Assembly (NCBI GenBank): GCA_963662715.1
Contig: OY759724.1
Coordinates: forward strand, 2,490,001 to 2,522,000
Direction of reading: 5' to 3'
DNA length: 32,000 nucleotides
Source: Candidatus Omnitrophota bacterium
Lineage (GTDB): Bacteria > Omnitrophota > Gorgyraeia > Zapsychrales > JANLHA01
The notes under the pieces were generated by a model that ran no database searches, had not been told where the DNA came from, and worked only from the letters and a program-made list of their open reading frames with translations. The position numbers and the translations under genes were made by a program. Shown here piece by piece: positions 11,011 to 30,781 of the stretch. Within the stretch, counting starts at the first letter, position 1, and every line of letters begins with the position of its first letter.

Positions 11011-12417
11011 ATGGGCTTTATAATTTATTTAAAAAAGATATTCAGTAATAAAACGATAGCGAAGTCTACTTTTGAACATAAGAAGGCAGGTACGAATGCA
11101 TCTAAAAAAATTGTCAATAAGACCACTCCGCTTCATAAAGCTGCTAACGACGGTTATCGTACGCGGATTACACAGCTTATTAAGGCAGGAGCGAATGTTA
11201 ACGCATTAGACGAGAAGGGGCGAACGCCTTTAGATCTTGCAATACAAAATTATCGTAAAAGGGCGATAAAGAAATTAAAAGAAGCTGGAGCAAAAGAAGG
11301 CATCGAGTTATTCAAGAAAAAAAATGACAAGTCCAAACTTCCCCCTAAAACATCGGTTCAAAATCAGCTTGGAGCATCAGGTCAAAATTTGCCCACTGAA
11401 TCTAAAAAATCCGAGATGCAATATTTTGAAGTTGGTAGAAATAATTCAGATGAGGGTGGTTATTGTTCGGATGACGCGTGCCCTTGTCATCCGGAGACTC
11501 CCATTCCAGTGGGACAAGGGTATCTTTACATTGATCCTGAATTAGTTGCATTTCGTCGCAATTATCCGTCAGAAGCATCTGCCAATCAAGAGATGTTGCG
11601 CCGTGTTGAGGATTTACGACGCAATAATCCGATTTATAAAAACGCACGGATGACTTGTTCAATCAAACCTGTGCTTGTCTGTGAGCAAGGAGCCAGACTG
11701 CGTAAGCTTAATTTAAAAATAGCCGCAGATGATGCACGGCATTGGTGGAAAACCGGGAAGGTTCCATTACGGCCCACACCTCTTGCTGATGGCAGTGTGC
11801 CTGATGTCGGTTCAGACACATACTTTAGACCGGATAAGTTTGCCGGGATAATAAATATGTCTATTTTAAGCCATACAGTTAGCTCAGACCACGTTCCGGT
11901 GGGCAGTACGTCTGTGATTTATAAAACGACTAAAGAGCATCTTAATCGTATCAGATCTGACATGCCGGAAATAAGTATGCAGACGATTTTTAACGAAATT
12001 GAACAGTGTGTGCTTGATAATGCCTCAGCGATTGAGGCGATGGTCCAAAAAACCATATCAGATGGTGAGCTTCATACAAAGGTGCTGGGGGGAGGGAACA
12101 CGTCAATGTTCTTGATCGTGTCCTCTTTGCCGAAAAGAATGCACGAATCTGCTGCTTTTTTTGCCGCTAAGTATCCCCCGGGTTTTGGAGGTTATTTAAA
12201 CTTTTGGCTCAACTCAGAAGTGATCTGGAAGATGAAGGGTTTAGGCCATTCTGTCATGGCCCATCTTCTTGTTTATAACGATTGTGCCGTTAGTGTAGGG
12301 GTCATCCCTCTAGATCACAAAAATTTAGACACCTGCCCACGGGGCGTGCTTCCGGAGGACTCTCTTACCAAAGAAGATCGACGACTAATGGGATTAGATA
12401 AAGTTAGGATAATATAA
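11011..12417 (+). CDS. ankyrin-repeat protein with a Cys-containing C-terminal domain of unknown function
   Basis: ANK motif TPLHKAANDGYRTRITQLIKAGANVNALDEKGRTPLDLA. The remaining ~350 aa has no motif I recognise. Confidence 0.75.
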   Translation: MGFIIYLKKIFSNKTIAKSTFEHKKAGTNASKKIVNKTTPLHKAANDGYRTRITQLIKAGANVNALDEKGRTPLDLAIQNYRKRAIKKLKEAGAKEGIELFKKKNDKSKLPPKTSVQNQLGASGQNLPTESKKSEMQYFEVGRNNSDEGGYCSDDACPCHPETPIPVGQGYLYIDPELVAFRRNYPSEASANQEMLRRVEDLRRNNPIYKNARMTCSIKPVLVCEQGARLRKLNLKIAADDARHWWKTGKVPLRPTPLADGSVPDVGSDTYFRPDKFAGIINMSILSHTVSSDHVPVGSTSVIYKTTKEHLNRIRSDMPEISMQTIFNEIEQCVLDNASAIEAMVQKTISDGELHTKVLGGGNTSMFLIVSSLPKRMHESAAFFAAKYPPGFGGYLNFWLNSEVIWKMKGLGHSVMAHLLVYNDCAVSVGVIPLDHKNLDTCPRGVLPEDSLTKEDRRLMGLDKVRII

Positions 12418-12872
12418 TGTCAAATCTGCAACATGATTTATATCTATTACAATCAAATGCTGCAAGAAGCAACTTATCTCAAGTTAAGCATATTGTATTA
12501 AGCGGAATAAATATAAATTTTCAAGCGAGAAGTTCCGTATTATGAATTAGGAGCAGATTTTTTTGATAAACGCTAGAGAGATAGAGTCGTCAAGAAATAC
12601 ATTAACAGACTAGCAGCGTTGAGGTGCGGTGTGACGGTAAAGCAATTGGCGTAAAAATTTTTGAAAAGCTCTTTAATTTAATTGATGAATATAGGAAGCA
12701 TGTTGATTTTTACTGGTGGTTACGGCTCCGACCATGAAACTGACCGGGCCGGTTCTAAGCATAAAGGAATGTTGCCAAGAGCACGCAGGTGAAATCTTTA
12801 CCTCTAACCGGATACCTATTTACATTTATCAAGGAATATTGATCAGGACGGATGTAGCAGGGTATTTCTGCC

Positions 12873-13154
12873 TTGAATATCCGTGGAGAAGAAGAATTTG
12901 TAAGGACACTTGTCAGAACTGCCGGCGATCGATATCAAAGTTCTGTCGTCAAGGCAAAGCGTGATCTTCAGCTAAGAAAAGAAAAATATAATAAGTACAG
13001 GTTCAGGGCGGTCATCTTGTTTGTCCTAGCCGCGGGTTCTCTGATTGTCACACTTTTCAAGCTGAGATTTGTTGGGTTATCTTCCCGAAGAGAAAAAGAC
13101 CGTCCAGTGTCAATAGACCGTACTGTTTCTATTTTGGGCGCTGGCCACAATTAA
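12873..13154 (+). CDS. hypothetical small membrane protein (weak call, TTG start)
   Basis: One predicted TM helix (AVILFVLAAGSLIVTLF). It has no ATG start and sits in a region full of gene remnants. Confidence 0.25.
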   Translation: MNIRGEEEFVRTLVRTAGDRYQSSVVKAKRDLQLRKEKYNKYRFRAVILFVLAAGSLIVTLFKLRFVGLSSRREKDRPVSIDRTVSILGAGHN

Positions 13155-13266
13155 AAGAAGGAGAGAATGAGGTGTGATTCAGGGAGTTTCAAACAACACG
13201 AAACCTTACGGGCAATAAGTCAAAACAGGAGGCTGGGATCATTCAGATTGAAAGGAGTATGCCCAT

Positions 13267-13650
13267 ATGAAAGTATGTGATATCTGTAACAGCAGTAGCC
13301 ATCGTGGTACAATCGTGAAAGCACAAGACATGGGCAACGCAGCCCGGCAGGGTTTCGATCCGTACACTAGTGGACGTCTCTCCGCGGATAATACTGCGCT
13401 CAATACAACGGTGAGTAAAATACTAAAGGAGCAGGGTATGTCTGAGGCACAGATACGTTCTTATATTGCCAATATGCCTAAGCCTGCTTCACCTGAACAC
13501 TGGAAGCAATCGGCGATTAGTGGGAGCTTGTCCCAGTCTGATTGGTACATCTGTGATATATGCATGGTTAAATTGAAGCCTTTCTTAGGAGACAATGCAA
13601 ATGAGCATAAAGCGCCAGCTTTACGAAAATGGTGGCAATTTTGGCGCTGA
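13267..13650 (+). CDS. hypothetical protein with two CDIC motifs (split zinc-ribbon-like)
   Basis: AGGAG lies about 10 nt upstream. CDIC occurs at residues 4-7 and again at WYICDIC near the C-terminus. Confidence 0.6.
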   Translation: MKVCDICNSSSHRGTIVKAQDMGNAARQGFDPYTSGRLSADNTALNTTVSKILKEQGMSEAQIRSYIANMPKPASPEHWKQSAISGSLSQSDWYICDICMVKLKPFLGDNANEHKAPALRKWWQFWR

Positions 13651-13653
13651 TAA

Positions 13654-13953
13654 ATGACTAGAAGAGTGTCTGTGAAGAATATGGGTATTTATAAGCATAC
13701 AGATTACAGCACGGAAGTGGAGAGGGCCATATTTGCACCTCGATTTTGTGAATATTGCGGCAAAGAATATTTAATCAAAGAAAGGTTGAAAACCCGAGGT
13801 GAAAGCAGAAGTTATGATCGAAAATATTCCAGCAGTCATGCTGGGGAAGCTTATATGAATGCCATGCAGGAAATGTATAAGTTCGCTAGGGATATGAAAA
13901 TGAACTTGCGTCAGGTTTTAGTGGGTAAAGAAAAAATATTTCATAATAATTAA
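13654..13953 (+). CDS. hypothetical protein
   Basis: Starts 3 nt after the previous stop, which suggests translational coupling. Contains a single CEYC pair. Confidence 0.45.
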   Translation: MTRRVSVKNMGIYKHTDYSTEVERAIFAPRFCEYCGKEYLIKERLKTRGESRSYDRKYSSSHAGEAYMNAMQEMYKFARDMKMNLRQVLVGKEKIFHNN

Positions 13954-14073
13954 CGACAGTTTGTCGCGTACGTGCAAAATTTGTTTTGGGCATGTCATGA
14001 TTTTTGCGTGGCTTCAACTGAGATTGATTAGTATTTTATGTCATGTCCATTGTGATTTTCCTTAAGGCTTCTT

Positions 14074-15154
14074 GTGAAAAAGGCTAAAATTAATACTTTC
14101 CGAATATCTGCATTTATTTCGATTGCATCTATTTTTTTTGCTGGGTGCGTATCTGTATCCAAGATTCATCAAGCAATTAGCGCTGATAACGCGGCAGAAG
14201 TCCGAAGAATTATTACTGATGATGAGAACGCTGTTAATGCAATTGATCAGCAAGGGAATACTCCTTTGCATGTGGCATCGGTACGTGGTGATTCGGAAAT
14301 AGTTGAGTTGCTTATCAAGAAGGGAGCCCTTATTGATGCTGTTAATACGGCTGGCCGTACTCCTTTGATGGCTGCCATTCTTTCAGGTAAGACATCTGTA
14401 GCCAACGTTCTAGTTGCAAAGGGAGCAAACGTAAATGCCAGAGATCGTCAAGGATGGACTCCGGTTCTTTTGGCAGCACAGGAAGGCACATATGAACTTT
14501 TAAAAATGCTTGTTGATGCCGGAGGAAATGTTTTTAATAAGAATAATGAGATGGTGACAGCTCTTCATGTCGCCAGCTTAAAAGGGAATGAGGAATTTGT
14601 CCATTTTTTTTATAGGAAAAGAAGTTAATGTCGATAGTGTCACGTTGCAAGGGCTTACTCCATTACATTTTGCAGTTATGAATGATCATATTTCTGTTGC
14701 TGAAATATTAATAGAAAAAGGAGCAACACCAAAATTTGCTGCATCCAATGTTTATATCACAATCAAGACCCATTTAATTTTTGCCGAATATTATAGGAAG
14801 TATTGGGATTGCGACAAGGCCGTTCATCATCTTTCTACGGCCATTAAATATCATGATGAACACAATGATTCTCAGAACATCGTGAAGTCTTTAACTGAGC
14901 TGAGGTTATGGAGATTGCAATGTTTAGCGCCTATTCTTTTTCCAATTGCTTACCTAGATGGATGCATGTCTGGGCATATCCCTCAATTGGAGAATCAATG
15001 GGAGACAGAAATCCGGAATATTGAGGCTGAACAGCTGAAACTCGTAGATAGTATTGAAGAAACTAGAAATAAACTTTTTTGTTATGAGCAATCAGATAAA
15101 CGAAACGAGATTGAAGAATGTATGGGAGAGATAGATAATCCTCTCTTTCCTTAG
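14074..15154 (+). pseudogene. ankyrin-repeat lipoprotein gene interrupted by a +1 frameshift in a T8 tract
   Basis: GTG start and lipobox FFAGC. ANK repeats continue across the two listed ORFs (14074-14628 and 14588-15154). Removing one T from T8 (14604-14611) gives the continuous reading ...GNEEFVHFFIGKEVNVDSVTLQGLTPLHFAV... Confidence 0.8.
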
Positions 15155-15340: not shown

Positions 15341-15673
15341 ATGATTGTATGGACTGGGAAAGGATTTGTGGTTTTTATATTCATTATGTTAGCCGTAATA
15401 TGCTCGGAATATGTCTCAGAATTTTTGACAGGGGACGAACAGTTTTATGACCAAAATCCATGGGTTCTTATGGTTGGAATGATGGTGGCTGCAGTGTGTA
15501 TCTATGTATTTCATCGTTTCTACCTTCTTCGCGAAAAGTCAAAGATCGTCATAGATAAAGAAACTGGCGAGGAGCTTGATCTAAAAGAATCGCATTCGCT
15601 TTTTTTTATGCCCGTTAAGTGGTGGCCACTAATTATGATCTTTTTGGGATTCATCTGGTCAAGGTCACCGTAA
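15341..15673 (+). CDS. small integral membrane protein (three predicted TM helices)
   Basis: Strong SD (GAGGAGG) 7 nt upstream and three hydrophobic segments. Confidence 0.6.
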   Translation: MIVWTGKGFVVFIFIMLAVICSEYVSEFLTGDEQFYDQNPWVLMVGMMVAAVCIYVFHRFYLLREKSKIVIDKETGEELDLKESHSLFFMPVKWWPLIMIFLGFIWSRSP

Positions 15674-15788: not shown

Positions 15789-16427
15789 ATGAGGGAAAAA
15801 AGAGTGCTAGGAATTGTTTTTATTTTGGCAGTTAATTTAATGAGTAGCGGTTGCGGATTATTGCCTAGAGCAAAATTAACACTAACTCCAGAACCAAATT
15901 CCATAGTTGTCGATTATTCAAAGAAATGCGGAAGAGTACAGGTCAATAAACCTGATCTAAGTCAAATGACTGAGTTTGATAGGAAAATGATATATGGATT
16001 TGCCAATGAATTAGAGAATAGCGGACTCTGTGAAGAAGTATTTTATCACACACTACCAGAAGGCCCGGTTGATCTGGCCCTTGATCTCAGCTTTGAAGCA
16101 ACGCCTCACTTGTTTTGGGATGAAGAGAATGCTACAAATGAAGAATGGAAACAAATGAATAAACAAGTTCTTCCCAAGACTTTATTATTAACTTTGTCTT
16201 TAGGTATGATTCCTGCGCCTTATAATGAGGATTACTATTTAAAAGGCAAAGCTGTTATTTATAAGAATAATAAAGAAAAAGGAGTAGTTGATGGTCAGTT
16301 CCATGCCCATTGGCACGGTACTGCAATGGGGATCATTGCTATTGAAGAAGAAACGAAAGAAGAATTCAAAAAGGTTTTATATAAACAATTAATTACAGGA
16401 ATTACCGATTATTGTGAAAGTAAATGA
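15789..16427 (+). CDS. lipoprotein, unknown function
   Basis: AAGGAGG lies 6 nt upstream of the ATG at 15789. MREKRVLGIVFILAVNLMSSGC carries a lipobox. Confidence 0.65.
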   Translation: MREKRVLGIVFILAVNLMSSGCGLLPRAKLTLTPEPNSIVVDYSKKCGRVQVNKPDLSQMTEFDRKMIYGFANELENSGLCEEVFYHTLPEGPVDLALDLSFEATPHLFWDEENATNEEWKQMNKQVLPKTLLLTLSLGMIPAPYNEDYYLKGKAVIYKNNKEKGVVDGQFHAHWHGTAMGIIAIEEETKEEFKKVLYKQLITGITDYCESK

Positions 16428-16873
16428 AAATATATGGTTTGCAGAAGAGAGGGTCGCCGGATATGATTAATTCAACAAAAAGTCAGTTCATCTGTTTGTT
16501 TTTTTGTTTGTTTTTTCTTGGGTGCGGTTCGGTTCACAGTCAGTATATTTATGATGATTCTTACAAGGAGAATAGTCCGGTTAAGAGTGAGAAATGCTAT
16601 GATGCGGCAGTGTTGTTGAATATTGATATGGAAAAGACTAAATACATATGTCGCAGATTTTTAATGGAGAAAGGCATTACTATTACTGCGGATACCGATA
16701 TTTCTATAGAGGCTAGTCAAAAAAATGGACATATTGCAATTCAGTATGAAAAGGTTACAAAAGATTTAACATTTGTGACTGTGGGAACCGAGAAACAGGA
16801 CTTTTGGGGTGGATTCTTGGATTCATGTGAAATCGTTGACGCTATTATAGAAAAGGCCAATGGCTTAGAATGA
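16424..16873 (+). CDS. lipoprotein, unknown function (alternative start 16463)
   Basis: ATGA overlap with the upstream gene. Lipobox FFLGC in ...FICLFFCLFFLGCGS. Confidence 0.6.
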   Translation: MKIYGLQKRGSPDMINSTKSQFICLFFCLFFLGCGSVHSQYIYDDSYKENSPVKSEKCYDAAVLLNIDMEKTKYICRRFLMEKGITITADTDISIEASQKNGHIAIQYEKVTKDLTFVTVGTEKQDFWGGFLDSCEIVDAIIEKANGLE

Positions 16874-17946: not shown

Positions 17947-18972
17947 ATGTTTATTACTCATTGCAGGAGGGCAAGCCGCTGCAAGTCAGTCGGAAAATTA
18001 TTGGTCCTTGTGATGGTCTTGTTTTTGTCTGGATGTACGACATTGTATGAAGTTAAACCGAATTTAGTTGCGAACTTCAAGCAATCGATCATTCCTAATG
18101 AGGATCAAACTCTAGTATATTTCATTCGAGGAAGTGCTTTTTCTGGTGGTGGCCGCAAGATATGGTTGGGGTGGAATGACCGAGCTATGGCGAGTTTGGC
18201 CTCGGGTACACATGCGTCTTTTTTGATGGATGCTGGCATTAATACAATTAATATCGTGGAAACCAAAATGCCGCTTCTTTTTCATAAGTTGGATAATCGA
18301 GGAGGAGAAACAATATTCCTTTCGTATGAATATAAAAATGTCAAGATCGTAGAACTTGAAAGAGATCTTGGAATTTCAATGGTTATGCAAACGAAGGAAA
18401 TACCAATCATTGAGCCACCGCGGAAAAATGATGGATATCCTTTGGATTTGCTTAACCCTGGATTAGTTGATTTGTATTTGATGAAAACGACCGACAGGCA
18501 AAAAGAACCCAACGAAAATAAAGCGATAATAACTTTTATAAGACCCATAAAATATGCAGAGGGGGTAGCATTTGGAATTTGGGATGAGAATAGTTTTCTC
18601 GGGAGTTTAAAAGAACAGACCTATTTCCAGATCGCTGTTGATCCGGGTAAGCACACGTTTTTAGGTAAAGCTGAGCAGTGGTCAGTATTACAGGCAGAAG
18701 TCGAGGCCGGTAAGAAATACTACATCGAAGTTAAGGCTAAACTGGGAATGACAGTTGTGCGTATGCAATTATTGCCTTTAAAAGCCAAGATGTCTGGGGA
18801 AATGAAGAAATGGATGAATACTTCTCAGCTATTGACGTTAGATAAAAACGCCATCAACGATGATGTGCAAGAGCGCCTGGATAAAGCATTGCCTTTAATA
18901 CGATCAATTTTAGAGAAAGTAGCAAAAGGGGAACTGAAACCCAGATTTTTAAAGGTGTCAGATGGAATATAA
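17947..18972 (+). CDS. lipoprotein with two DUF2846-like repeats
   Basis: AGGAG lies 6 nt upstream of the ATG at 17947, with lipobox LFLSGC. Two similar modules are present (LVYFIRGSAFSGG...ASLASGTHASF and AIITFIRPIKYAEG...GSLKEQTYFQIAVDPGKHTF). Confidence 0.65.
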   Translation: MFITHCRRASRCKSVGKLLVLVMVLFLSGCTTLYEVKPNLVANFKQSIIPNEDQTLVYFIRGSAFSGGGRKIWLGWNDRAMASLASGTHASFLMDAGINTINIVETKMPLLFHKLDNRGGETIFLSYEYKNVKIVELERDLGISMVMQTKEIPIIEPPRKNDGYPLDLLNPGLVDLYLMKTTDRQKEPNENKAIITFIRPIKYAEGVAFGIWDENSFLGSLKEQTYFQIAVDPGKHTFLGKAEQWSVLQAEVEAGKKYYIEVKAKLGMTVVRMQLLPLKAKMSGEMKKWMNTSQLLTLDKNAINDDVQERLDKALPLIRSILEKVAKGELKPRFLKVSDGI

Positions 18973-19279: not shown

Positions 19280-20500
19280 ATGTGGGAATGTCCTGATTGC
19301 AACACTACTAATTGGGATTCTGATTCAAAATGTCATCAATGTGGTTGCGACCTTTCTAATAAAGAAAAGTTAGCTAAAGTTTCTTCTCAGAAGATTAAAA
19401 GTCCTAGAGCGGATAAGCGTTCAAATTGGAAATATGCATTAGTCCATTTACTTTTAACCCCAGCGCTTTTTGTCTTAAGCATATTAATACTTAGTTTTCT
19501 TAGGGTTCCTGATGATGCATCTGTCTATTATTGTCTCTTGATTATCGGAGGCTATCCGATTGCGAAGCTTATCGGCTTTAATCCTATGTACATAGCCCTG
19601 CCGATATTTTGGCTCTATAGATATTCAGGCATGTATATATCATTTAAGGGAATGGCCTATATTGTGTTCGTGCCTTCTTATGTATCAGTTCAAGTCCATA
19701 CTCTGCTGTTGCTCATTCCAGATATGTATAAAAATTGCGTTTCTTGGCTCAAAGCTATAAAATGGCCGCTTCGCATCCTAACTGTTCTCTCTACTATCGT
19801 CATTATTTTAGGTGCCATTTCCTGGATGACAAACTGGTTCCGCCAGGGATCTTTCGATTATTATGCGAGTTCGTCTGGAGAGGACCGCATAAGATACGCT
19901 ATCGCATACAAGCGGCTTGATTTGCTGAAGAAAAGTATTAGGCACGGCATGGAGTTGGAGGACTATCTGATGTGGAAAGCCGGTTATCAGGAGAAAAACG
20001 AGAAAATTCTTGAATTTTTGATCAACAGCGGCCTGTCAGTGAATGCGGTAACCGGTTCAGGAGAAACAGCCCTTCATTCGGCAGCAGAAAGTGGAGAGGT
20101 AGAAAATATTCGGTTTCTAATAAGCCATGGTGCTGATCCTAACATTAGAGATGACGCAGGTCAGACGCCACTTCATCAAATAGTTCTTTCGGATTATATT
20201 CCAGATGAAAAGGTTGCTGAGATAATACAAATCCTAGTTGACGGTGGAGCAGATGTCAATGCTGTTACGAAACCGAACATTCATTCGGCTTACAAAAATT
20301 GGAGTGGAGGAGATATGCCTCTTCATTATGCGGTTAAGCAAAGAAAAAATTTTAAGAAAGAGCCCTATCCTCCAAAAGTTCGATCCGTTGCTACTCTTCT
20401 AGAACTGGGTGCTGACGTAAATGCCAAAAACAGCGATGGTCGTACGCCATTGGAGATTGCTACTAATGAGGAAATTAAGAAAATTCTTTTGGAACATTAA
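19280..20500 (+). CDS. zinc-ribbon / multi-TM / ankyrin-repeat protein
   Basis: GAAGGAGG SD. N-terminal CPDC-x10-CHQC, about 5 hydrophobic helices and C-terminal ANK repeats (GETALHSAAESGEVENIRFLISHGADPNIRDDAGQTPLH...). Confidence 0.8.
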   Translation: MWECPDCNTTNWDSDSKCHQCGCDLSNKEKLAKVSSQKIKSPRADKRSNWKYALVHLLLTPALFVLSILILSFLRVPDDASVYYCLLIIGGYPIAKLIGFNPMYIALPIFWLYRYSGMYISFKGMAYIVFVPSYVSVQVHTLLLLIPDMYKNCVSWLKAIKWPLRILTVLSTIVIILGAISWMTNWFRQGSFDYYASSSGEDRIRYAIAYKRLDLLKKSIRHGMELEDYLMWKAGYQEKNEKILEFLINSGLSVNAVTGSGETALHSAAESGEVENIRFLISHGADPNIRDDAGQTPLHQIVLSDYIPDEKVAEIIQILVDGGADVNAVTKPNIHSAYKNWSGGDMPLHYAVKQRKNFKKEPYPPKVRSVATLLELGADVNAKNSDGRTPLEIATNEEIKKILLEH

Positions 20501-20865: not shown

Positions 20866-20899
20866 CCAGTTGCAAAATTCATTTACTAGGGGGAGCCAT
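20866..20899 (+). repeat. degenerate tRNA-Asn 3'-end remnant (copy b)
   Basis: CCAGTTGCAAAATTCAT...GGGGGAGCCAT. The last 11 nt are identical to 9380-9390, and the first 17 nt are identical to 25217-25233. Confidence 0.65.
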
Positions 20900-21118
20900 A
20901 TAAAAAGGGACGCCTTTTAGGCGTCCCTTTTTATATGCTTGCTCTGCGTAACGAGATACCCAGAGAGCGAAGCGAGCGGTTCTGACCGAGCCCGCCAACA
21001 TGCGAAGCGTTCAAGAGGGCGAGGAAATGGTGGCGAGTTGGAACGAGCCACCAGAGTCCTCGCGACCGAGCATGGCGAGGGAGTGCCAACAGTCAGAGGA
21101 CTGTGGCCGGGGGAGTTA
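20890..21118. repeat. 229-nt structured repeat, copy A
   Basis: Identical to 23187-23415 except at 20947 (C vs T) and 20985 (A vs C). Contains a hairpin terminator, GCGAAGC motifs and a split tRNA-Asn 3' end. Confidence 0.9.
20902..20932. terminator. bidirectional hairpin terminator inside repeat A (also present at 23199-23229 in repeat B)
   Basis: AAAAA-GGGACGCC-TTTTA-GGCGTCCC-TTTTT. Confidence 0.7.
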
Positions 21119-21165: not shown

Positions 21166-21171
21166 GCTTGT

Positions 21172-21200: not shown

Positions 21201-21224
21201 TATACCACTATGCAAGATTATTCA

Positions 21225-21275
21225 ATGAAGTTAAACAACCTACTTCTCGGACTACTCCTATCTTTATTGAGATAG
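21225..21275 (+). CDS. candidate Leu-rich leader peptide MKLNNLLLGLLLSLLR
   Basis: 9 of 16 codons are Leu (TTA, CTA, CTT, CTC, CTA, CTC, CTA, TTA, TTG). It sits in the 5' arm of a long hairpin upstream of a terminator and leuA. There is no clear SD. Confidence 0.55.
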   Translation: MKLNNLLLGLLLSLLR

Positions 21276-21332
21276 GCCGTGAGAAGAGGTGTGTTTATTC
21301 ATTGAATAAAAAATAAATAATTAAAAAATGAA

Positions 21333-21369
21333 GCCACCGCTTCTTAATGAGGCAGGTGGCCTTTTTTTT
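21333..21369 (+). terminator. attenuator terminator upstream of leuA
   Basis: GCCACC (21333-21338) pairs with GGTGGC (21355-21360), followed by C and T8 (21362-21369). Confidence 0.7.
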
Positions 21370-21428
21370 GAATAGTCGACCACCTTAATCTTTAGGAAGT
21401 AGTGGTGTCAAAAGAAAGGTGGTGTATT

Positions 21429-23099
21429 ATGAAAAAAGTTGAAATGCCATTCAAGCGTTATCGCCCATATCCGCAAGTAAATCTTTTTGACCGCGAATGG
21501 CCAAATAAGACAATCGTAAAAGCTCCGATTTGGTGCAGTATTGACCTGAGGGATGGTAATCAGGCTTTGAGCAACCCAATGAATGTTGATGAAAAAATAA
21601 TAATGTTTGAGCTTCTTGTAGAAATCGGATTTAAGGAAATTGAAGTTGGTTTTCCTTCTGCGTCTGATGTTGAATATCAGTTTATCAGGAGACTTATCGA
21701 AGAAGAACGAATACCTGATGATGTTACGATTCAAGTGCTGACACAAGCCCGTGAACATTTAATAAGAAGAACTTTTGATTCCGTGCGGGACGCCCAAAAA
21801 GCAATCATTCACTTATATAATTCCACTTCAACAGTGCAAAGGGAAATTGTCTTTAGAAAAAATAAAGAGGAAATAAAAAGTATTGCCATAAACGGAACAA
21901 AGTTAATAAAGGAATTAACTGATGCAGAAAAGAATGATGGCATACGCTTTGAGTACACACCTGAAAGTTTCCCAGGGACAGAGTTGGATTATGCCTTGGA
22001 AGTTTGCTCTGCGGTAATGGATGTGTGGGGTCCATCACCTGACAATAAAATAATCATAAATTTGCCAACAACTGTTGAGATGTCAACGCCCAATATTTAC
22101 GCTGACCGCATTGAATGGTTCTCTCGTCATATTAATAAAAGAGAATCAGTTATTATCAGCGTACATACTCATAACGACAGAGGAACAGGTGTGGCTTCTG
22201 CCGAATTAGCTGTTATGGCAGGAGCTGAGCGTGTCGAAGGAGCTTTATTCGGCAATGGGGAGAGAAGTGGCAATATGGATATTGTCACAATGGCTTTAAA
22301 CCTTTTTAGCCAAGGGGTAAATCCTGAGCTTGATTTCTCGGACATCAATAGAATTGCGGATATTTACAAAAAATGTACAAGAATGGATATTCATCCTCGA
22401 CATCCCTATGTAGGAGAGTTGGTCTATACTGCTTTCTCTGGGTCACATCAAGATGCAATTAACAAAGGAATGAAAAAACAACGAGAAAATGAAAGCAATA
22501 TTTGGGATGTGCCATATCTTCCCATTGACCCCAAGGATGTTGGTCGGACTTATGAGGCCATTATCCGTATAAATAGTCAATCTGGGAAAGGCGGTGTTGC
22601 TTTTGTTTTAGAGAACGATTGGGATTTTAAGATACCCAAAGAGATGCAACCTGAATTTGCTCAGGTTATACAGCGGATGACAGAGAGTGTTAATAGCGAG
22701 TTATCATCGCAAGAAATAAAGAATTGTTTTGAAAAGGAATATATAAAAAGGACAGGACAATTTCAATTAAAATCTTGTGCCATTCATTCTGAAAATGAAA
22801 ACTCTAAAGAAACTATTGTCTGTGCTTTAATAAAAAATGAGCAACAAGAAATAACAATTCGTTCAAAAGGAAATGGTCCTGTTGATGCTTTTGTTTGCGG
22901 CACCAAGAGACATTTCAACATTATTTTCGATGTGGCATATTATTCTGAACATTCCCTTTCGCAAGGAGCCGATGCAGAAGCTGTTGCTTACATCGGGATA
23001 AAAACTGGCGAAAGCAAAATTGTCTTTGGAGTTGGGATTGATGCAAATATTAGCATAGCTTCAATTAAAGCGATTGTGAGTGCTATAAATCGTATGTAA
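21429..23099 (+). CDS. leuA: 2-isopropylmalate synthase, long form
   Basis: MKKVEMPFKRYRPYP...WCSIDLRDGNQAL...EVGFPSAS...HTHNDRGTGVA..., with a C-terminal LeuA allosteric domain. AGGTGG lies upstream of the ATG at 21429. Confidence 0.9.
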   Translation: MKKVEMPFKRYRPYPQVNLFDREWPNKTIVKAPIWCSIDLRDGNQALSNPMNVDEKIIMFELLVEIGFKEIEVGFPSASDVEYQFIRRLIEEERIPDDVTIQVLTQAREHLIRRTFDSVRDAQKAIIHLYNSTSTVQREIVFRKNKEEIKSIAINGTKLIKELTDAEKNDGIRFEYTPESFPGTELDYALEVCSAVMDVWGPSPDNKIIINLPTTVEMSTPNIYADRIEWFSRHINKRESVIISVHTHNDRGTGVASAELAVMAGAERVEGALFGNGERSGNMDIVTMALNLFSQGVNPELDFSDINRIADIYKKCTRMDIHPRHPYVGELVYTAFSGSHQDAINKGMKKQRENESNIWDVPYLPIDPKDVGRTYEAIIRINSQSGKGGVAFVLENDWDFKIPKEMQPEFAQVIQRMTESVNSELSSQEIKNCFEKEYIKRTGQFQLKSCAIHSENENSKETIVCALIKNEQQEITIRSKGNGPVDAFVCGTKRHFNIIFDVAYYSEHSLSQGADAEAVAYIGIKTGESKIVFGVGIDANISIASIKAIVSAINRM

Positions 23100-23165: not shown

Positions 23166-23196
23166 AGTTGCGAAACGCGTCCTCTTGGGGAGCCAT
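23166..23196 (+). repeat. degenerate tRNA-Asn 3'-end remnant (copy c)
   Basis: AGTTGCGAAACGCGTCCTCTTGGGGAGCCAT retains the GTCCTC and GGGGAGCCA blocks of the tRNA T-arm and acceptor. Confidence 0.55.
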
Positions 23197-23415
23197 ATAA
23201 AAAGGGACGCCTTTTAGGCGTCCCTTTTTATATGCTTGCTCTGTGTAACGAGATACCCAGAGAGCGAAGCGAGCGGTTCTGCCCGAGCCCGCCAACATGC
23301 GAAGCGTTCAAGAGGGCGAGGAAATGGTGGCGAGTTGGAACGAGCCACCAGAGTCCTCGCGACCGAGCATGGCGAGGGAGTGCCAACAGTCAGAGGACTG
23401 TGGCCGGGGGAGTTA
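23187..23415. repeat. 229-nt structured repeat, copy B
   Basis: See copy A. The offset is exactly 2297 nt. Confidence 0.9.
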
Positions 23416-25060: not shown

Positions 25061-25105
25061 AGATTTTGCTAGAAAAATAAGTGTGCAGAAGAAAGGAAGA
25101 AAGAA

Positions 25106-25165
25106 GAAAGTGCCAGTCCCCTCAAAGGGACAGGTCGAATGAATTGAAAAATAATTAGAAGGACA
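25106..25165. repeat. short repeat module, copy E (GCCAGTCCCC-loop-GGGAC...)
   Basis: About 60 nt that aligns by eye with 31402-31462. Its first ~20 nt also align with 27844-27863. Confidence 0.6.
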
Positions 25166-25216: not shown

Positions 25217-25253
25217 CCAGTTGCAAAATTCATCCACCAGGGGGAGCCATTTA
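25217..25253 (+). repeat. degenerate tRNA-Asn 3'-end remnant (copy d), candidate distal att junction
   Basis: GGGGGAGCCATTTA (25240-25253) is identical to 9380-9393. Extending to 36 nt gives 28/36 identity by hand alignment. Confidence 0.65.
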
Positions 25254-25292
25254 GAAATATCCAGCGCACCATTTTGCGACTGGTTAACAATC

Positions 25293-25325: not shown

Positions 25326-25385
25326 ATTTTATTATCGCGAAAAAACCACGGCCATGAGGCCGTGGATGAAGTGTAATGACCCTAG

Positions 25386-26177
25386 TTAAGCAAGGATTTT
25401 TTTGTGTAGATCGAGTTCTTTGTTAATCCATCTTTTGTAAAACTCTTCAGGCGTAGCGAAGAATAATGCCTGATGAGGGAAATCGGTGTTGTAATCGTTG
25501 ATCCAACGCTTGAAGTCATCTTGAAGATCAAATGGGTTGTCCCATTCATTGATCCAAATGAAATCTTCTTTGATTCTGCGGATGACGCGTTCGGTGTCAG
25601 CATTGCCTTTGGGGTTGGACCAGGTTGAGAAGATCTGCTTGATGCCGGCCAGTGAACAATTAAGCCTGAAGCGCCCGCTGGTGGGCTGACAGCCATTGTC
25701 CGAGATCAGGTGCAGGTCATGATTCAGTGTGTCTTTGATGCCGTTTGGGAATCGGTTGTTGATGGCCATTTCCAGGGCATCCAGCCAGTCATCAGTCTTT
25801 GACTGGATGTTGAGGCTATAGCCGATAATTTCTTTGGTATACCAGTCTAGGACGATGGTCAGATAGAACCAGCCCCAGGTCGCCAGTTTGATTTTTGTCA
25901 TATCGATACCCCAGAATTGATTGGGGTGAGAAGCTCGTGGTTTCCGGCGGAGGTTGCCACGCTTGGCCTTCAAGCGATCGTTGGGTTGAACCGTTAATTG
26001 ATTTTCTTGCATGAGGCGTTGGACACAATTTTTGCCAATTTTGTAATGTTTACGGTTGTTTAAATAGGCCCAGACTGAACGGTATCCCCAGAGGGGATGT
26101 TGCTTTTTAATTTGTCGGATTTTGACTAAATGTTTTTGGTCTTGTTCGATACGCTTTAGAGAACGGCGTCTTTTCAT
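25386..26177 (-). CDS. IS3-family transposase OrfB (DDE/rve integrase core)
   Basis: FWGIDMTK (D), LISDNGCQ (D) and NADTERVIRRIKEDF (E). Probably expressed as an OrfAB fusion by a -1 frameshift. Confidence 0.85.
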   Translation of the reverse strand: MKRRRSLKRIEQDQKHLVKIRQIKKQHPLWGYRSVWAYLNNRKHYKIGKNCVQRLMQENQLTVQPNDRLKAKRGNLRRKPRASHPNQFWGIDMTKIKLATWGWFYLTIVLDWYTKEIIGYSLNIQSKTDDWLDALEMAINNRFPNGIKDTLNHDLHLISDNGCQPTSGRFRLNCSLAGIKQIFSTWSNPKGNADTERVIRRIKEDFIWINEWDNPFDLQDDFKRWINDYNTDFPHQALFFATPEEFYKRWINKELDLHKKILA

Positions 26178-26479
26178 AACTCGTACTCGTTTTTTTTTAG
26201 TTCAACGGTCAAGTCGCCGATGATGCGTTTGAGTTTGGCGTTTTCTTTTTCAAGACGTTGCTCTTTCTGGGACTGTTGTTTGATGTCAAAGGCCATATGG
26301 CATTCTTTGAGGAACTGGTCGCGCCATTTGTAATATTGGGTTTGGCCAATTTGGTATTTGTTACAAAGTTTACTGATGTCGATTTTCCCGCTGAGGCCTT
26401 CAAGCACGATTTGGGTCTTTTGTTGGCTGGTCCATTGGCGTTTTTTCATGGGAATTGGGCTCCTTTCCTTGGAACTCAA
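26174..26479 (-). CDS. IS3-family transposase OrfA (HTH plus leucine zipper)
   Basis: WTSQQKTQIVLE...YYKWRDQF plus a coiled-coil region. The slippery CTA AAA AAA AAC lies near the 3' end (minus strand, about 26190-26201). Confidence 0.85.
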   Translation of the reverse strand: MSSKERSPIPMKKRQWTSQQKTQIVLEGLSGKIDISKLCNKYQIGQTQYYKWRDQFLKECHMAFDIKQQSQKEQRLEKENAKLKRIIGDLTVELKKNEYEL

Positions 26480-26564: not shown

Positions 26565-26993
26565 ATGAGATATTTGAAGCAAGGACACACAGTTTACTAT
26601 GCCAGATACCATATTGTCATTTGTACAAGATATAGGCGAAAGATATTGCGATGGGGTTCGGCGGAGTATGTCAAAAGATGCGTTTTGGGAGTGATGAGAC
26701 GGTATCCTGAGATCATCATTGAAAAAGTAAATACAGATTTAGATCATATGCATCTTTTGGCATCAATTCCGCCGAAGATGGCTGTAAGTCATGCAGTAAA
26801 TCTGATTAAGAGTAACACAGCAAAGCTGATGAGGCGGCGATATAAGTTTTTAGACAAGATGTATGTGAAAAAGGCAGGGATATGGTCAGCAGGGTATTTT
26901 GTGTCAACGGTTGGAGCCGACGAAGAATCGATAAAGCGATACATCGAATATCAAGGCCGGGAAGACCGAGGACAAACGCAGATAGAATTTTAG
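26565..26993 (+). CDS. tnpA: IS200/IS605-family Y1 (HUH) transposase
   Basis: YHIVICTRYRRKIL, HUH motif DHMHLLASIPP and catalytic Tyr context SAGYFVSTVGADEESIKRYIEYQ. Confidence 0.9.
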   Translation: MRYLKQGHTVYYARYHIVICTRYRRKILRWGSAEYVKRCVLGVMRRYPEIIIEKVNTDLDHMHLLASIPPKMAVSHAVNLIKSNTAKLMRRRYKFLDKMYVKKAGIWSAGYFVSTVGADEESIKRYIEYQGREDRGQTQIEF

Positions 26994-27195
26994 CTGCGTT
27001 TGCACAGTCAAAATAGTTAAGAAACCACGGCCGTGAGGCCGTGGAGTTTCATTTAACGGGAAAGATATAAATATTGAGGTAGTACATAAAACTATAAATA
27101 GCAAAATATTATGATAAAACGACACGGCGCTGTACTTAGCTTCCTCGTATGTTATATTAAAATAAAGAGCGGCGTAATATGAGTACGGGAGTATT

Positions 27196-27795
27196 ATGAA
27201 TAAAGAGTTTGTCATCCTATTGGTCATTTTCATTTTTAGTGTAAATATACAGAATTTTTATAATTTGTATAAATTAAGCAGATCTGAAAGCGCGATAATT
27301 AAAAGCACGCCGTATCAGAAATATCATGTTATACAAGATAAAGTTCCTTATATGGACACGGAATTAACTTTATTGGCCGAGTTCCGCTTAGACGCGATGG
27401 TCATTAGTAAAAAACGATATGTGTCGGATCTGACAGCAAAATATGCGCCTTTTGATTTGCTTTTAGGATGGGGCCCGATGTCTGATCCTGATATTTTGAA
27501 ACATATCCATATTAAGCAAGGAGGAAGAAGAGGGACCATTCGCTATAAATCGTCTTCACCCGTCCCGCATTTTTATGTGCAAAATTTTTTCTCAAATGTT
27601 CATGCCATTCCTGCGGATCGTGCCATATTAGAAATTATTTCAGTACTTCAGCCCGGAAATGTTATCCATTTGGAAGGTTATCTGGTCCATCAGCAAGGCA
27701 AAAACTGGAGCTGGAAAAGCTCGCTGAGTCGTTCGGACTCAGGGTATCGTTCCTGTGAGATTTTTTATATAAAAAAAATAGACGCTGTAGAATAA
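27196..27795 (+). CDS. membrane-anchored hypothetical protein
   Basis: N-terminal TM (FVILLVIFIFSV). Conserved-looking GWGPMSD and SRSDSGYRSCE motifs that I cannot place in any family. Confidence 0.6.
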   Translation: MNKEFVILLVIFIFSVNIQNFYNLYKLSRSESAIIKSTPYQKYHVIQDKVPYMDTELTLLAEFRLDAMVISKKRYVSDLTAKYAPFDLLLGWGPMSDPDILKHIHIKQGGRRGTIRYKSSSPVPHFYVQNFFSNVHAIPADRAILEIISVLQPGNVIHLEGYLVHQQGKNWSWKSSLSRSDSGYRSCEIFYIKKIDAVE

Positions 27796-27843
27796 GTAAA
27801 TAAAGTAGGTGCCAAATTAGGTCACAGGGTGCTGGCAGAAAGG

Positions 27844-28011
27844 AAGGGGCCAGTCCCCAAAAGAGTGGAGGGGCCGAAGTTCTGCCCGAACCCGCCAACA
27901 CGCGAAGCATTCAAACGGGCGAGGAAAAGGTGGCGAGCGACCGAGGACGAAATGTCCGAGGAAGTGCCGAAATCTCCGCGTTTCGGCCCAGAGCGAACAA
28001 CCAGAGTCCTC
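27844..28011. repeat. diverged third copy (C) of the structured repeat
   Basis: 27879-27937 aligns without gaps to 20979-21037 with 6 mismatches in 59 nt. CGACCGAG, GAGTGCC-like and CCAGAGTCCTC blocks are also shared, but in a different order. Confidence 0.75.
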
Positions 28012-28190
28012 ATTTTGAAAAATATATTCGCAAACTTTAGTAAACCTGTAATGATTTAAATAATTTACTTTGTAATTATTTTAGAGTATTATATTTTTAT
28101 CCTAAATTAATAAAATATTCCATGGTCTTTCAATGGGAGGAGCGATCTGTCTTTCCTTTGAGCCGTTTCATCCTGAGTAAATGTGCGAAC

Positions 28191-29867
28191 ATGAACTGTG
28201 TCATTTTCCAACCCCACGTTAGTGCATCCCGCTGGTTTAATAAAATCGTGATTCTTGTCATATCTTTCTGCCTCGGTGGCTGTGCAAGCTTTCCCTTGCA
28301 TACAGCGATCCGTCAGCAGGACCGAAACCGGGCTAAAGAGTTAATCAACCGGAAAAGAGGGCTTAATGACTTCAACGAGCAAGGGCTTTTGCCGATTCAT
28401 TTGGCGGCAAAAGCAGATGAGGTCGAATTGGTCAAGGTCATGCTGAACGCTGGTGTAGACATTGACGCGCGCGCTAATGATCTGGCAAAAAACGTAACCC
28501 CCTTATTTGAAGCGACGGCGGCCGGGCATACACGGATGATAGAGTTCCTGCTCAAAAATGGGGCCATTCCTGACCTGGCAACAAGCGATGGCTTGACACC
28601 AGTCATGCGTGCCGCACAAGACGGTAATATCAGTGCCCTCCAGGTTCTCTGCAGAAATAAGGCCGATCTTGATCTGCAGTTACCCAATGGGTATACGTCA
28701 TTGATGCTTGCCATACAGCACCGGCATTCACGGTGTATCCAAGAGCTTCTTGAAAACGGCGCTGATCCTGACATTTTGAATGCTGACGGCAGATCAGCTT
28801 TGTGGCTTAGTATAAAAGAAGATGAAAGTGATGTTGTTGAAATGTTGGCAAAGAACAAAGTGGATATAAACAGTATTAATAGTGGGATGGTCCCGCTTAT
28901 ACAGGCGTTTTCAGATGGAAACATAAAAATAGTAGAAACATTGATCAGGCTCGGGGCGGATGTCAATGTGCAAAGCAGTGAAGGGTGGACTCCACTGGGA
29001 TGGGCGGCGCTGAATGGAAAACCACGCTTGGTTGAATTATTGCTGCAACACGGCGCAGACATCGATGGCGCGGATATTTCCGGTCAAACTCCGCTGTATC
29101 TGGCGGCAATACAGAATAATGCCGAAGTGGTTCTTATCTTGGTCGAAAACGGAGCGGACATTAAGGCAAAGACGGATGAAAATACGACGGTTTTACACGC
29201 AGCTGCTCTGGGGGAACATCCGGATATGATTGATTTCTTTTTGAGGCTAGGACTACGCCCTCAAGTGGTTACTGGCGGGGCTGAAGATGCCTATGCAACG
29301 GCTTTGGCATATAAGCGTTATGGGCAATTAAATCTGAAAAATGGTGATACTGCCGGGGGCAGGGAAGCGTATGAAACGGCAGCTGAACAATTTTCACTCG
29401 CGGCCGGGAAGTATTCCGAACTGATTCAGGAGTATGCCCAAAAAATTCAATCAAAAAAGATGAAAGAATTTTTGGCAAAAACGGCCCTTGTTCTGGCCCA
29501 GGGGGTTGTCTATGCAGCTCAGTCGTACCAGGCTGCAAGCAATTACAAAAGTTATTCTGAGGTAGCCGCTTTAAAACAGGCATCGTCAAACGGATCTGGC
29601 GTATCCGGATATTATAGTGCCTTAAATGCCTACCGGGAGGCCTATGTCCCGGTGTCCCATACGACGGGAGGTTTCCCATCTACCATTAAGTCAGGGACCG
29701 GCGATATAAGACTGTTCACTGCTGCAAAAAACAGGTGCAACCTGCGGGCCGTAACAAGTGCCGGCTATGCACAAGAATGTTTAAGGGCCACGGAATGCTT
29801 TGCCGGAAACGATATGGCAACAGAAATTCTGGAGTGTATTCAACACGCGGAAAGAAAAAATCTTTGA
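28191..29867 (+). CDS. large ankyrin-repeat lipoprotein with an Ala/Tyr-rich helical C-terminal domain
   Basis: The ATG at 28191 gives MNCVIF...ILVISFCLGGCAS (lipobox). About 10 ANK repeats are followed by ~190 non-ANK residues. Confidence 0.8.
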   Translation: MNCVIFQPHVSASRWFNKIVILVISFCLGGCASFPLHTAIRQQDRNRAKELINRKRGLNDFNEQGLLPIHLAAKADEVELVKVMLNAGVDIDARANDLAKNVTPLFEATAAGHTRMIEFLLKNGAIPDLATSDGLTPVMRAAQDGNISALQVLCRNKADLDLQLPNGYTSLMLAIQHRHSRCIQELLENGADPDILNADGRSALWLSIKEDESDVVEMLAKNKVDINSINSGMVPLIQAFSDGNIKIVETLIRLGADVNVQSSEGWTPLGWAALNGKPRLVELLLQHGADIDGADISGQTPLYLAAIQNNAEVVLILVENGADIKAKTDENTTVLHAAALGEHPDMIDFFLRLGLRPQVVTGGAEDAYATALAYKRYGQLNLKNGDTAGGREAYETAAEQFSLAAGKYSELIQEYAQKIQSKKMKEFLAKTALVLAQGVVYAAQSYQAASNYKSYSEVAALKQASSNGSGVSGYYSALNAYREAYVPVSHTTGGFPSTIKSGTGDIRLFTAAKNRCNLRAVTSAGYAQECLRATECFAGNDMATEILECIQHAERKNL

Positions 29868-29881
29868 AAGGGGGGAGTAAA

Positions 29882-30781
29882 ATGAATTTTTCGCATCTGC
29901 GAAACGCTCTTGTGGTTTTGGGGGTGATTTTATTGAGCGGGTGTGCCGGTGCTTTGCACACGGCTGCCAAGCAAAATGACGTGCCCCGGGCTAAAATGTT
30001 AATCGAGAGCGGCGTTCAGGTTGACTGCCGGGCAAAGTGGAAAAATGAAACTCCTTTACAAATGGCGGCGGAAGCGGGGAATACAGAGGTAGTGAAATTC
30101 CTGATAGATGCTGGAGCTGACGTAAATGCGGGAGGATACAATAATTTTACCGTCTTGCACAGTGCCATTACCAGCGGAAACGAAGATGTCGTCCGTCTGC
30201 TCCTAGAAAATGGCGCCAATGTCAACGCGGTTACCGATGAGGAGTATGCTCCGATTCATCATGCGGCCTATCATGGCAATGCAAACATTATACGCTTGTT
30301 GATCAATTATGGTGCTGATCTTACACTGAAAGACAGGTGGATTAATAATATGACCCCTTATGAACTGGCATCTGTCAGGAACCATGATAGCGTCGTTCTT
30401 AATCTTTTAAGGATTGAAGATCAGAAGGCTTCTGCTGCATCTGCCGGGATGGATGTCAACCCAGAGTCTATAGCCTCAGAGATGTCTGAGAAAAAATATG
30501 CGGTGGATGAACGCCGTCCGTATGTCGTTCTTGCGGCTGAAAGGGGACAGTACAAAGTTTTGCAGGGGCTTATTGAAAATGGCGTCGATGTGAATACAGT
30601 CTTACCCGACGGCTCTACCGCTTTGATGCTTGCGGCGAAGAGAGGTCATGATGATATCGTGAAATTGCTCCTGCGACATGGCGCTGATGTCAACGTTGAG
30701 CGTAATGATGGAGAGAATGCCATGTCTCTGGCGGCAAGTGAGGAGATTCGAGAAATCTTAAGAAGTTTTGGTGCTCAATAA
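29882..30781 (+). CDS. ankyrin-repeat lipoprotein
   Basis: GGGGGGAG SD. MNFSHLRNALVVLGVILLSGCAG carries a lipobox. ANK repeats fall in two blocks. Confidence 0.8.
   Translation: MNFSHLRNALVVLGVILLSGCAGALHTAAKQNDVPRAKMLIESGVQVDCRAKWKNETPLQMAAEAGNTEVVKFLIDAGADVNAGGYNNFTVLHSAITSGNEDVVRLLLENGANVNAVTDEEYAPIHHAAYHGNANIIRLLINYGADLTLKDRWINNMTPYELASVRNHDSVVLNLLRIEDQKASAASAGMDVNPESIASEMSEKKYAVDERRPYVVLAAERGQYKVLQGLIENGVDVNTVLPDGSTALMLAAKRGHDDIVKLLLRHGADVNVERNDGENAMSLAASEEIREILRSFGAQ

Follow-up and report, generated by a model that had tools for sequence, protein, structure and literature searches.

Why a single short stretch of a bacterial chromosome should carry five ankyrin-repeat (ANK) genes, and whether these genes serve a common purpose, is the question raised by the locus described here, which belongs to an uncultured Candidatus Omnitrophota bacterium. 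The window, that is, the whole stretch of DNA analysed, comprises 32,000 nucleotides (GenBank assembly GCA_963662715.1, contig OY759724.1, positions 2,490,001 to 2,522,000); coordinates are given as positions within it, and features lie on the + strand unless stated otherwise. A first-pass annotation had called five ANK genes, namely ANK1 (11011-12417), ANK2 (14074-15154), ANK3 (19280-20500), ANK4 (28191-29867) and ANK5 (29882-30781), and Pfam analysis confirmed all five. Their ANK domains (PF00023 / PF12796) scored above the gathering thresholds in 5/5 genes (Ank_2 35-205 bits, cut-off 27.3), and a single-repeat consensus gave approximately two repeats in ANK1, five to six in ANK2, four in ANK3, nine in ANK4 and seven in ANK5. 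No further ANK open reading frame (ORF) was identified in the window, or in 429,798 bp from 33 related Omnitrophota genomes, where the loci compared were the core recR neighbourhoods and not the whole genomes; five ANK genes within 20 kb therefore represent a real local enrichment, and not a chance cluster. The overall picture that we favour, tentatively and with somewhat less than even confidence, is that of a genomic island carrying lipid-tethered periplasmic ANK proteins that bind other proteins, for which an inhibitor-like or immunity-like role is the most plausible.

The genes had been described as a paralogous set, a description that was not borne out. Pairwise identity among the five ANK proteins was 25-38%, a generic level, and ANK4 showed the same range to unrelated ANK proteins from many sources, including animals. 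When the ANK regions alone were compared, the best matches of every window protein lay outside the window. Recent local duplication is therefore unsupported. ANK1 also differs in architecture and predicted location, and ANK2 and ANK4 were the only pair with a specific shared non-ANK domain. A proposed ANK remnant at 12417-12600 could be discounted, as it scored 0.7 bits against the ANK consensus and the short ORF at this position (12417-12545) had no Pfam match at E ≤ 1.

Lipoprotein signals were assessed using the PROSITE PS51257 rule, which requires a lipobox pattern whose Cys falls at residues 15-35, together with a K or R among the first seven. Three of the ANK proteins had been put forward as lipoproteins. 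The signals of ANK2 (FFAGC, Cys25) and ANK5 (LSGC, Cys21) conformed to the rule, while that of ANK4 (LGGC, Cys31) was one position off the strict pattern. The probable lipoprotein status of ANK4 is supported by its relatives, since 11/16 full-length homologues of the ANK4 tail passed the strict lipobox rule and most of the others were near consensus. ANK lipoproteins as such are not rare, with ~8% (9/106) of Met-starting generic ANK matches passing the lipobox rule.

ANK2 had been annotated as one gene. A +1 frameshift within a stretch of eight T residues (T8, 14604-14611) in fact divides it into two ORFs (14074-14628 and 14588-15154), and removal of one T from this run yields an uninterrupted 359-aa ANK lipoprotein; the frameshift represents either a pseudogene or a homopolymer sequencing error. 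The repeats of ANK2 are followed by a shortened version of a C-terminal domain (CTD), as identified with a CTD hidden Markov model (HMM). In ANK4, identified by Pfam and by a search with its tail, the repeats precede a 200-aa helical CTD (29256-29864), and this protein is the founding member of the rare, hitherto unnamed ANK-CTD family defined in this analysis. ANK5 is without a CTD. It starts 14 nt past ANK4, and the two proteins are colinear, beginning with the signal peptide (29% identity, E 1e-26); ANK5 is a tail-less relative of ANK4 and is probably co-transcribed with it. The PDB matches of ANK5 were mostly consensus designed ankyrin repeat proteins (DARPins) and ankyrin-1.

The full-length ANK4 protein had no orthologue in a 5.8-billion-cluster protein index, where the best non-self matches showed 25-36% identity and covered the ANK region only. 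The best matches of its first 80 residues were family members, aligned from the signal peptide. An exhaustive search of 1.84 billion representatives with the 203-residue tail of ANK4 identified 31 proteins at E ≤ 1e-3, with the match always in the C-terminal position. When the CTD alignment was run as a profile against the large protein index, nothing was returned, which conflicts with the exhaustive search and is probably due to the word prefilter; the family size given here (~31 clusters) is taken from the exhaustive representative search alone. Nearly all of the retrieved members combine a lipoprotein signal, ANK repeats and the conserved tail, and in most of them the repeats begin 2-9 residues past the lipidated Cys (for example, "GC-ASFPLH.AI"). 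The CTD alignment (A4) shows a YATA-type helical hairpin, a Q.AQI.AL..AS.TGTG..GYY stretch and a terminal C-x5-C-x12-C motif. All family members are metagenomic, and none bears a name more specific than "ankyrin repeat protein" apart from P0138 (614 aa; cluster member P0161), the source name of which is ankyrin repeat / mono/diheme cytochrome c, and in which a CxxCH haem motif ends the sequence after the CTD. As it carries a c-type cytochrome fusion, this family member is predicted to be periplasmic, and the fusion possibly reflects a redox-linked partner.

The A4 HMM matched ANK4 over the whole profile (203 bits) and ANK2 with a total of 32 bits, at profile positions 4-42 and 165-192. The two matching pieces of the ANK2 tail are colinear and correspond to the first hairpin and to a terminal CY-x11-C motif, with the middle third of the CTD missing. 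ANK5, ANK1, ANK3 and every other non-ANK segment in the window scored <0 bits. Comparison of the ANK2 tail with the CTD using hhalign gave a probability of 73% over the first 40 columns. As the HMM matches both ends of the tail and hhalign agrees, ANK2 is considered a shortened member of the ANK4 family, and the earlier observation of a common architecture in these two proteins stands, homology being its basis. The AlphaFold2 (AF2) model of the ANK4 tail is an all-helical bundle (mean predicted local distance difference test score (pLDDT) of 82). A Foldseek search of this model against the PDB and viral models showed no significant similarity; the top PDB matches were ClyA-type pore-toxin components (E 0.3-1) and the best viral match was a tail fibre (E 0.03, non-significant).

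ANK1 and ANK3 are of a different kind. ANK1 contains two ANK repeats (aa 36-95, Pfam), a Cys-motif domain (aa ~145-260) and a C-terminal domain, and 80% of the protein is non-ANK. No lipobox match, signal peptide or predicted hydrophobic segment was identified, and from its sequence the protein is predicted to be cytoplasmic. The conserved middle domain of ~110 aa (11440-11790) carries the motifs CSDxxCPCPE ... LVCEQGARLR ... WW.TG.VPLRPTP, has no Pfam model and is 43-56% identical to proteins (P0123-P0130) annotated TPR, WD40 or TerB, where the TPR, WD40, TerB and ANK labels of these relatives are precomputed Pfam domains or source names. The AF2 model of ANK1 had a pLDDT of 70-97 over aa 135-270. 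The fold search that had been suggested for the non-ANK domains was no more informative for ANK1 than for the ANK4 tail: there was no significant match, and the top matches were PD-(D/E)xK nucleases (E 0.04-0.4, template modelling score ≤0.2 on the query). ANK3, examined by Pfam and hydropathy, has an N-terminal CxxC...CxxC zinc ribbon followed by three to five hydrophobic segments and ~4 C-terminal ANK repeats, in agreement with its earlier description as a zinc-ribbon and multi-transmembrane fusion. The side of the membrane on which its ANK domain lies is ambiguous from hydropathy. Both proteins would be separate cargo, and not parts of one machine with the ANK lipoproteins.

The ANK genes lie to the right of a tRNA-Asn (GTT) gene (9314-9389; ARAGORN, Rfam 69 bits), the left anchor of what had been proposed to be a tRNA-linked accessory region, and comparison with the relatives bears this out. 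The RecR protein (8570-9169) is 83-85% identical to its counterparts in three Candidatus Omnitrophota metagenome-assembled genomes (MAGs) and 57-69% identical to those of ~30 others. The pom-tex-dnaX-recR block is syntenic in the closest MAGs and ends in the recR-tRNA-Asn pair, an arrangement also present in relatives L001-L003, L014, L018 and L024; the mscS and epimerase genes between tex and dnaX had matches in the more distant loci only. Core synteny ends at the tRNA-Asn gene. With the exception of IS3 transposase fragments (L015, L024), no homologue of the genes at 9.4-31.4 kb was found downstream of recR in the 33 related loci. The closest relative with sufficient flank, L002, holds a different element at the same tRNA-Asn (L002 9577-19419), so this site is an integration hotspot. 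ORF translations of the L002 element, read by eye, included a small lipoprotein, a NERD-like protein, a large serine recombinase, an ImmA/XRE-like pair and a primase-helicase-like protein.

After the tRNA gene, the guanine-cytosine (GC) content changes from ~0.50 to 0.35-0.44. The 11-mer at the 3'-end of tRNA-Asn, GGGGGAGCCAT, is present in three exact + strand copies, with 0.01 expected. Exact copies form attachment site (att)-like boundaries at 20889-20899, inside a wider 41-nt repeat (20866-20906), and at 25240-25250, the third exact copy, identified by exact match and repeat comparison; a 10/11 copy is located at 23186. The similarity extends beyond the motif at all of these sites, the extended similarity around the motif covering 20866-20906 and 25217-25257. 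These tRNA-end copies split the region into at least four segments, of which the first contains ANK1, ANK2, lipoproteins and ANK3, the second leuA flanked by 229-nt repeats, the third two methyltransferases, and the fourth an insertion sequence (IS) of the IS3 family, an IS200-like transposase, ANK4, ANK5 and an ORF at 30900. No integrase or recombinase gene remains in the window, where only the IS3 transposase and the IS200-like ORF were identified. The features of a tRNA-linked genomic island (tRNA border, 3'-end direct repeats, atypical composition and absence from relatives) are all present. The three extra tRNA 3'-end copies, the IS elements and the dead toxin gene that punctuate the interval from 9.4 kb to ~31.4 kb mark it as a mosaic genomic island in partial decay. 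This island would have arisen through successive integration events at tRNA-Asn in the ~3.36-Mb chromosome of a Candidatus Omnitrophota bacterium, and its cargo would consist mostly of predicted envelope proteins. Islands at tRNA genes and orphan immunity arrays have in common an anchoring tRNA, copies of its 3'-end, an unusual GC content, genes for toxin-antitoxin systems and IS elements, absence from relatives, and cargo that lacks cognate toxins. The same traits are present in the window; however, no integrase is left, and no cargo matches a named immunity family.

With regard to function, the prediction for ANK2, ANK4 and ANK5 is that they are exported, receive their lipid at the lipobox Cys and stay anchored to a membrane on its periplasmic side, with exposure at the cell surface as a possible alternative. 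The repeat stack would sit directly on the membrane, because the first ANK repeat starts a few residues past the lipidated Cys, and the ANK groove (plus the CTD in ANK4) would bind an envelope protein partner. An extracytoplasmic protein-binding role is reasonable, as three of the ANK proteins are predicted lipoproteins, and it is supported by the family member that is fused to cytochrome c and by the Cys residues conserved in the CTD. The surface or periplasmic protein-binding repertoire that had been suggested for the locus is, to this extent, reasonable for the lipid-anchored ANK2, ANK4 and ANK5; it does not form a single repertoire, with ANK1 predicted to be cytoplasmic and ANK3 separate. 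The likeliest role would be that of an inhibitor, or an immunity-like neutralisation of envelope-acting enzymes, and, as there is no toxin gene nearby, a mobile region may have collected them as orphan genes for immunity or self-protection. The gene structure, island nature, lipobox signals and family membership are supported by computation. The inhibitor function specifically, to which our analysis leads by way of architecture and comparison, is possible but doubtful.

Two characterised proteins provide models for such a function. Tli of Enterobacter cloacae is an ankyrin-repeat lipoprotein whose periplasmic localisation is required to neutralise the phospholipase Tle of type VI secretion system (T6SS)-1 (bioRxiv 10.1101/2023.03.28.534661). 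Tli resembles the ANK lipoproteins described here in that a lipoprotein signal peptide is followed by ANK repeats, and it acts by binding a protein. It differs in its context, as the tle effector gene adjoins it in a T6SS setting, whereas no effector, lipase, alpha/beta-hydrolase, VgrG, PAAR or T6SS gene was found among the ORFs scanned here. For Tli, its paper describes no counterpart of the helical Cys-containing CTD, and the likeness drawn here is one of architecture. Bd3460 of Bdellovibrio bacteriovorus is described as an ankyrin protein for self-protection against the predator's own peptidoglycan DD-endopeptidases (PMC4686830). For a phylum with predators among its members, this protein is a plausible model. 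Bd3460 is reportedly a short protein whose gene lies beside bd3459, an endopeptidase gene, and it is not known as a lipoprotein. In the window, by contrast, there is no adjacent peptidase or peptidoglycan hydrolase, and the proteins are lipid-anchored and much longer.

The neighbourhoods of the family homologues were examined in four contexts. Two were long contigs with ordinary, unrelated chromosomal neighbours and no mobile genes, and one homologue adjoins IS fragments. The metagenomic contig L049 (1-9359) encodes six predicted lipoproteins in one array (two DUF2846 proteins, two paralogues of 218 aa that are 60% identical, and two others), together with a TPR protein and an M48/CHAT protease, and the array ends in an ANK-CTD lipoprotein. 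The L049 lipoproteins showed no sequence similarity to those of the window at E ≤ 0.01. The mix recalls the DUF2846 and orphan lipoproteins of the window and may represent a recurring envelope gene set. Scans of metagenome contigs with the CTD alignment or the DUF2846 lipoprotein found nothing, as did a scan of viral contigs with ANK5. An extended reading would take the lipobox-ANK-CTD proteins (ANK4, ANK2 and ~30 metagenomic clusters) as undescribed lipid-anchored periplasmic binders with the Cys-stabilised helical CTD as a second module, and the window and L049 as marking a recurring envelope-conflict gene set; we hold this extended reading with very little confidence. Within it, the proteins could serve as orphan factors for immunity or self-protection, in a phylum with many predators. 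A further and more speculative idea, which takes its cue from the non-significant ClyA-type fold matches of the modelled tail, is that the CTD could be a membrane-active helical module.

Several observations weigh against the proposed island of inhibitor-like periplasmic binders. No lipase, peptidoglycan hydrolase, secretion-system or toxin partner was identified among the window ORFs scanned, in line with the earlier remark that no partner enzymes are visible, and no neighbour, toxin or hydrolase partner recurs across the four homologue contexts. Caution on the inhibitor role is warranted because there is no partner enzyme here or beside the homologues. None of the proteins was found to resemble a named immunity family. 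The lipobox rules predict from sequence only and were trained on other phyla, and neither the membrane that bears the proteins nor any surface exposure follows from prediction. The frameshift in ANK2 and the decay of the island mean that some of the genes may be non-functional. Finally, the GC content of the ANK4-ANK5-30900 block is core-like (0.44-0.49) and the right border of the island lies beyond the window, so that this block, with ANK4 and ANK5, may be native and not acquired.

Three other explanations were considered. The first is that the proteins are surface-exposed adhesins or recognition modules, that is, lipoproteins flipped to the surface that bind proteins of a host, prey or partner cell; this would agree with proposals that many Omnitrophota live as predators or depend on hosts. 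The genes are lipid-anchored, variable, accessory and absent from relatives, ANK repeats are generic protein-binding modules, and two studies describe an epibiotic predator and inferred host-dependent members in the Omnitrophota (PMC13153191, PMC10066038). However, there is no evidence for surface exposure, no adhesin-type domains are present, and the cytochrome c fusion in the family points to the periplasm. With the repeats starting so close to the Cys in most members, there is also no stalk that would reach past the outer membrane or lipopolysaccharide. Typical ultra-small host-dependent Omnitrophota have genomes smaller than the source contig of ~3.36 Mb. We consider surface adhesion unlikely.

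The second explanation is that the genes have no joint function: unrelated, horizontally acquired ANK genes would have accumulated at an integration hotspot and would now be in the process of being lost, and their clustering would reflect insertion history. This would be consistent with the merely generic similarity of the ANK domains and their best matches outside the window, with the att-like repeats that bound the four or more segments, with the IS elements, with two pseudogenes (the HigB-like gene and ANK2) and with the five ANK genes showing five architectures. It sits less well with the co-occurrence of ANK2 and ANK4, both from a very rare family, in one 32-kb window, with the adjacent and colinear arrangement of ANK4 and ANK5, and with a lipoprotein bias (7/~20 cargo genes) that suggests selection for envelope cargo; the T8 frameshift, furthermore, could be a sequencing error. 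An absence of any joint function is accordingly improbable in our view.

The third is that the proteins are native housekeeping envelope scaffolds or chaperone-like factors, for which the position in the accessory region would be incidental. A precedent for a periplasmic ANK factor is RARP-1 of Rickettsia parkeri, which its report places in the bacterial periplasm and not in the host by injection (bioRxiv 10.1101/2022.02.23.481736). The core-like GC of ANK4-ANK5-30900, the lipoprotein with faint LptE and DUF4136 similarity that follows the block, and the two homologue contexts that are ordinary chromosomal ones would fit this explanation, but the proteins are too sporadic (no ANK4 orthologue above ~36% identity among 5.8 billion clustered proteins, and ~31 clusters), the genes are missing from 33/33 of the related loci sampled and ANK2 is frameshifted, which makes a housekeeping role quite unlikely. 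RARP-1 itself has a genus-wide, core-like distribution, in contrast to the sporadic, island-borne proteins described here.

An eukaryote-like interaction with a host, which had also been raised, found no support. Lipid anchoring argues against injected effectors, and Omnitrophota are not known to associate with eukaryotes. The Ank effectors of the Dot/Icm type IV secretion system (T4SS) of Legionella and Coxiella are similar in having ANK repeats and multiple ANK genes per genome. The NCBIfam T4SS_Ank models, however, scored 13-31.5 bits in the window against cut-offs of 450-1400 (best 31.5 vs 600), and their matches were confined to the generic ANK portion of ANK1. Lipoprotein signals do not fit well with T4SS delivery from the cytoplasm to a host, and there are no T4SS genes in the window.

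The remaining cargo includes further predicted envelope proteins. Of the four additional lipobox proteins that had been listed, three conform to the PS51257 rule and the fourth is near consensus only. A lipoprotein with an MSSGC lipobox (Cys22) is encoded at 15789-16427, with a stop codon that overlaps the start of the next gene, and this gene (16424-16873) encodes a lipoprotein (FLGC) of no known family; neither protein had a Pfam, NCBIfam or PADLOC match. The third (17947-18972, LSGC) contains two DUF2846 stretches (Pfam PF11008, 3.6e-12). The fourth is a probable lipoprotein encoded downstream of ANK5 (30900-31385, ICAGC), which like ANK4 is one position off the strict pattern, and which matched Pfam LptE with E=0.0015 (below cut-off) and DUF4136 with 0.06. 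The possibility that this protein corresponds to the extra N-terminal domain of P0132, P0141 and P0159 was considered and was not established (BLAST E=0.06, faint Pfam similarity). A small protein of no known family with three predicted transmembrane segments is encoded at 15341-15673 (ORF translation, Pfam and hydropathy). Between ANK1 and ANK2 (13267-13953), there are two adjacent small ORFs (127 and 99 aa) that are CxxC zinc-ribbon-like and have no family match. Scans of the window with NCBIfam, PADLOC and PHROGs returned generic ANK, toxin-antitoxin and helix-turn-helix (HTH) matches only, and the PADLOC defence models matched only ANK regions (PDC-M72A and the Ankyrin model).

The toxin-antitoxin locus at 9607-10226 consists of a decayed HigB-like toxin gene and an intact HI1420-type antitoxin gene (PHROG toxin 3.6e-13; Pfam dnstrm_HI1420 3.6e-19; three-frame translation). 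The reading frame of the HigB-like pseudogene (9607-9921) is broken twice, by an in-frame TAA and by a frameshift in a G7 run (9855-9861); the antitoxin gene that is intact lies downstream. An IS3-family transposase with orfA and orfB lies on the - strand (25386-26479; Pfam rve, HTH_21 and rve_3, and ORF layout), followed by a 142-aa ORF (26565-26993) that was read by eye, from its translation, as a putative IS200/IS605-type TnpA. Near-identical 27-nt hairpins, CCACGGCC....GGCCGTGG, at 25340-25366 and 27019-27045 bracket both transposase genes. One possibility is that IS3 integrated into an element of the IS200/IS605 type; another is that both move as one unit.

The leuA gene (21402-23099) is flanked on its left (20890-21118) and right (23187-23415) by the two copies of the 229-nt direct repeat, which are 99% identical. 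Both copies open with the tRNA-Asn 3'-end motif (the second, together with base 23186, on the 10/11 motif) and a 41-nt palindrome. Immediately upstream of ANK4, at ~27860-27990, the GC-rich core of the repeat recurs in a third, diverged copy. The conserved 24-nt core had no exact match in the 50 loci fetched and no Rfam match at the gathering score. The repeat may be an element resembling a miniature inverted-repeat transposable element (MITE) or derived from an att site. The leader region of leuA (21210-21375) contains a 21-codon Leu-rich ORF, MQDYSMKLNNLLLGLLLSLLR, with nine Leu codons, followed by strong folding with a terminal hairpin and U8 (minimum free energy -61 kcal/mol, z = -7.85). 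By its sequence, the region upstream of leuA has the appearance of a classic leucine attenuator, in this case from an Omnitrophota genome. Another repeat, of ~75 nt, containing GCCAGTCCCC...GGGACAGG, is present at ~25085-25165, after a methyltransferase gene, and at 31385-31460, after the 30900 lipoprotein gene and upstream of a csp promoter-like site, as well as at 27838-27862.

In the open-access literature, no paper with a title or abstract on ankyrin proteins of Omnitrophota or Omnitrophica was found, and the words ankyrin and lipoprotein are both absent from a 2026 survey of complete Omnitrophota genomes. Within the literature searched, no description was found of ANK lipoproteins in Omnitrophota, of the CTD family or of two family members on a tRNA-Asn island. 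The locus extends a known kind of bacterial protein and is not a new system; it is a useful annotation and no surprise. Periplasmic or lipid-anchored ankyrin proteins are an emerging class, and two of the few characterised members inhibit envelope-acting enzymes, namely Tli, which acts against a phospholipase, and Bd3460, which acts against peptidoglycan endopeptidases; RARP-1 is a third, with a different role. To this class, the locus adds a small, recognisable family with a new CTD, and it indicates that genes of this kind travel on an island linked to a tRNA. If the proposed role in immunity or self-protection is true, these proteins would provide a handle on the envelope-attacking enzymes that Omnitrophota use or face.

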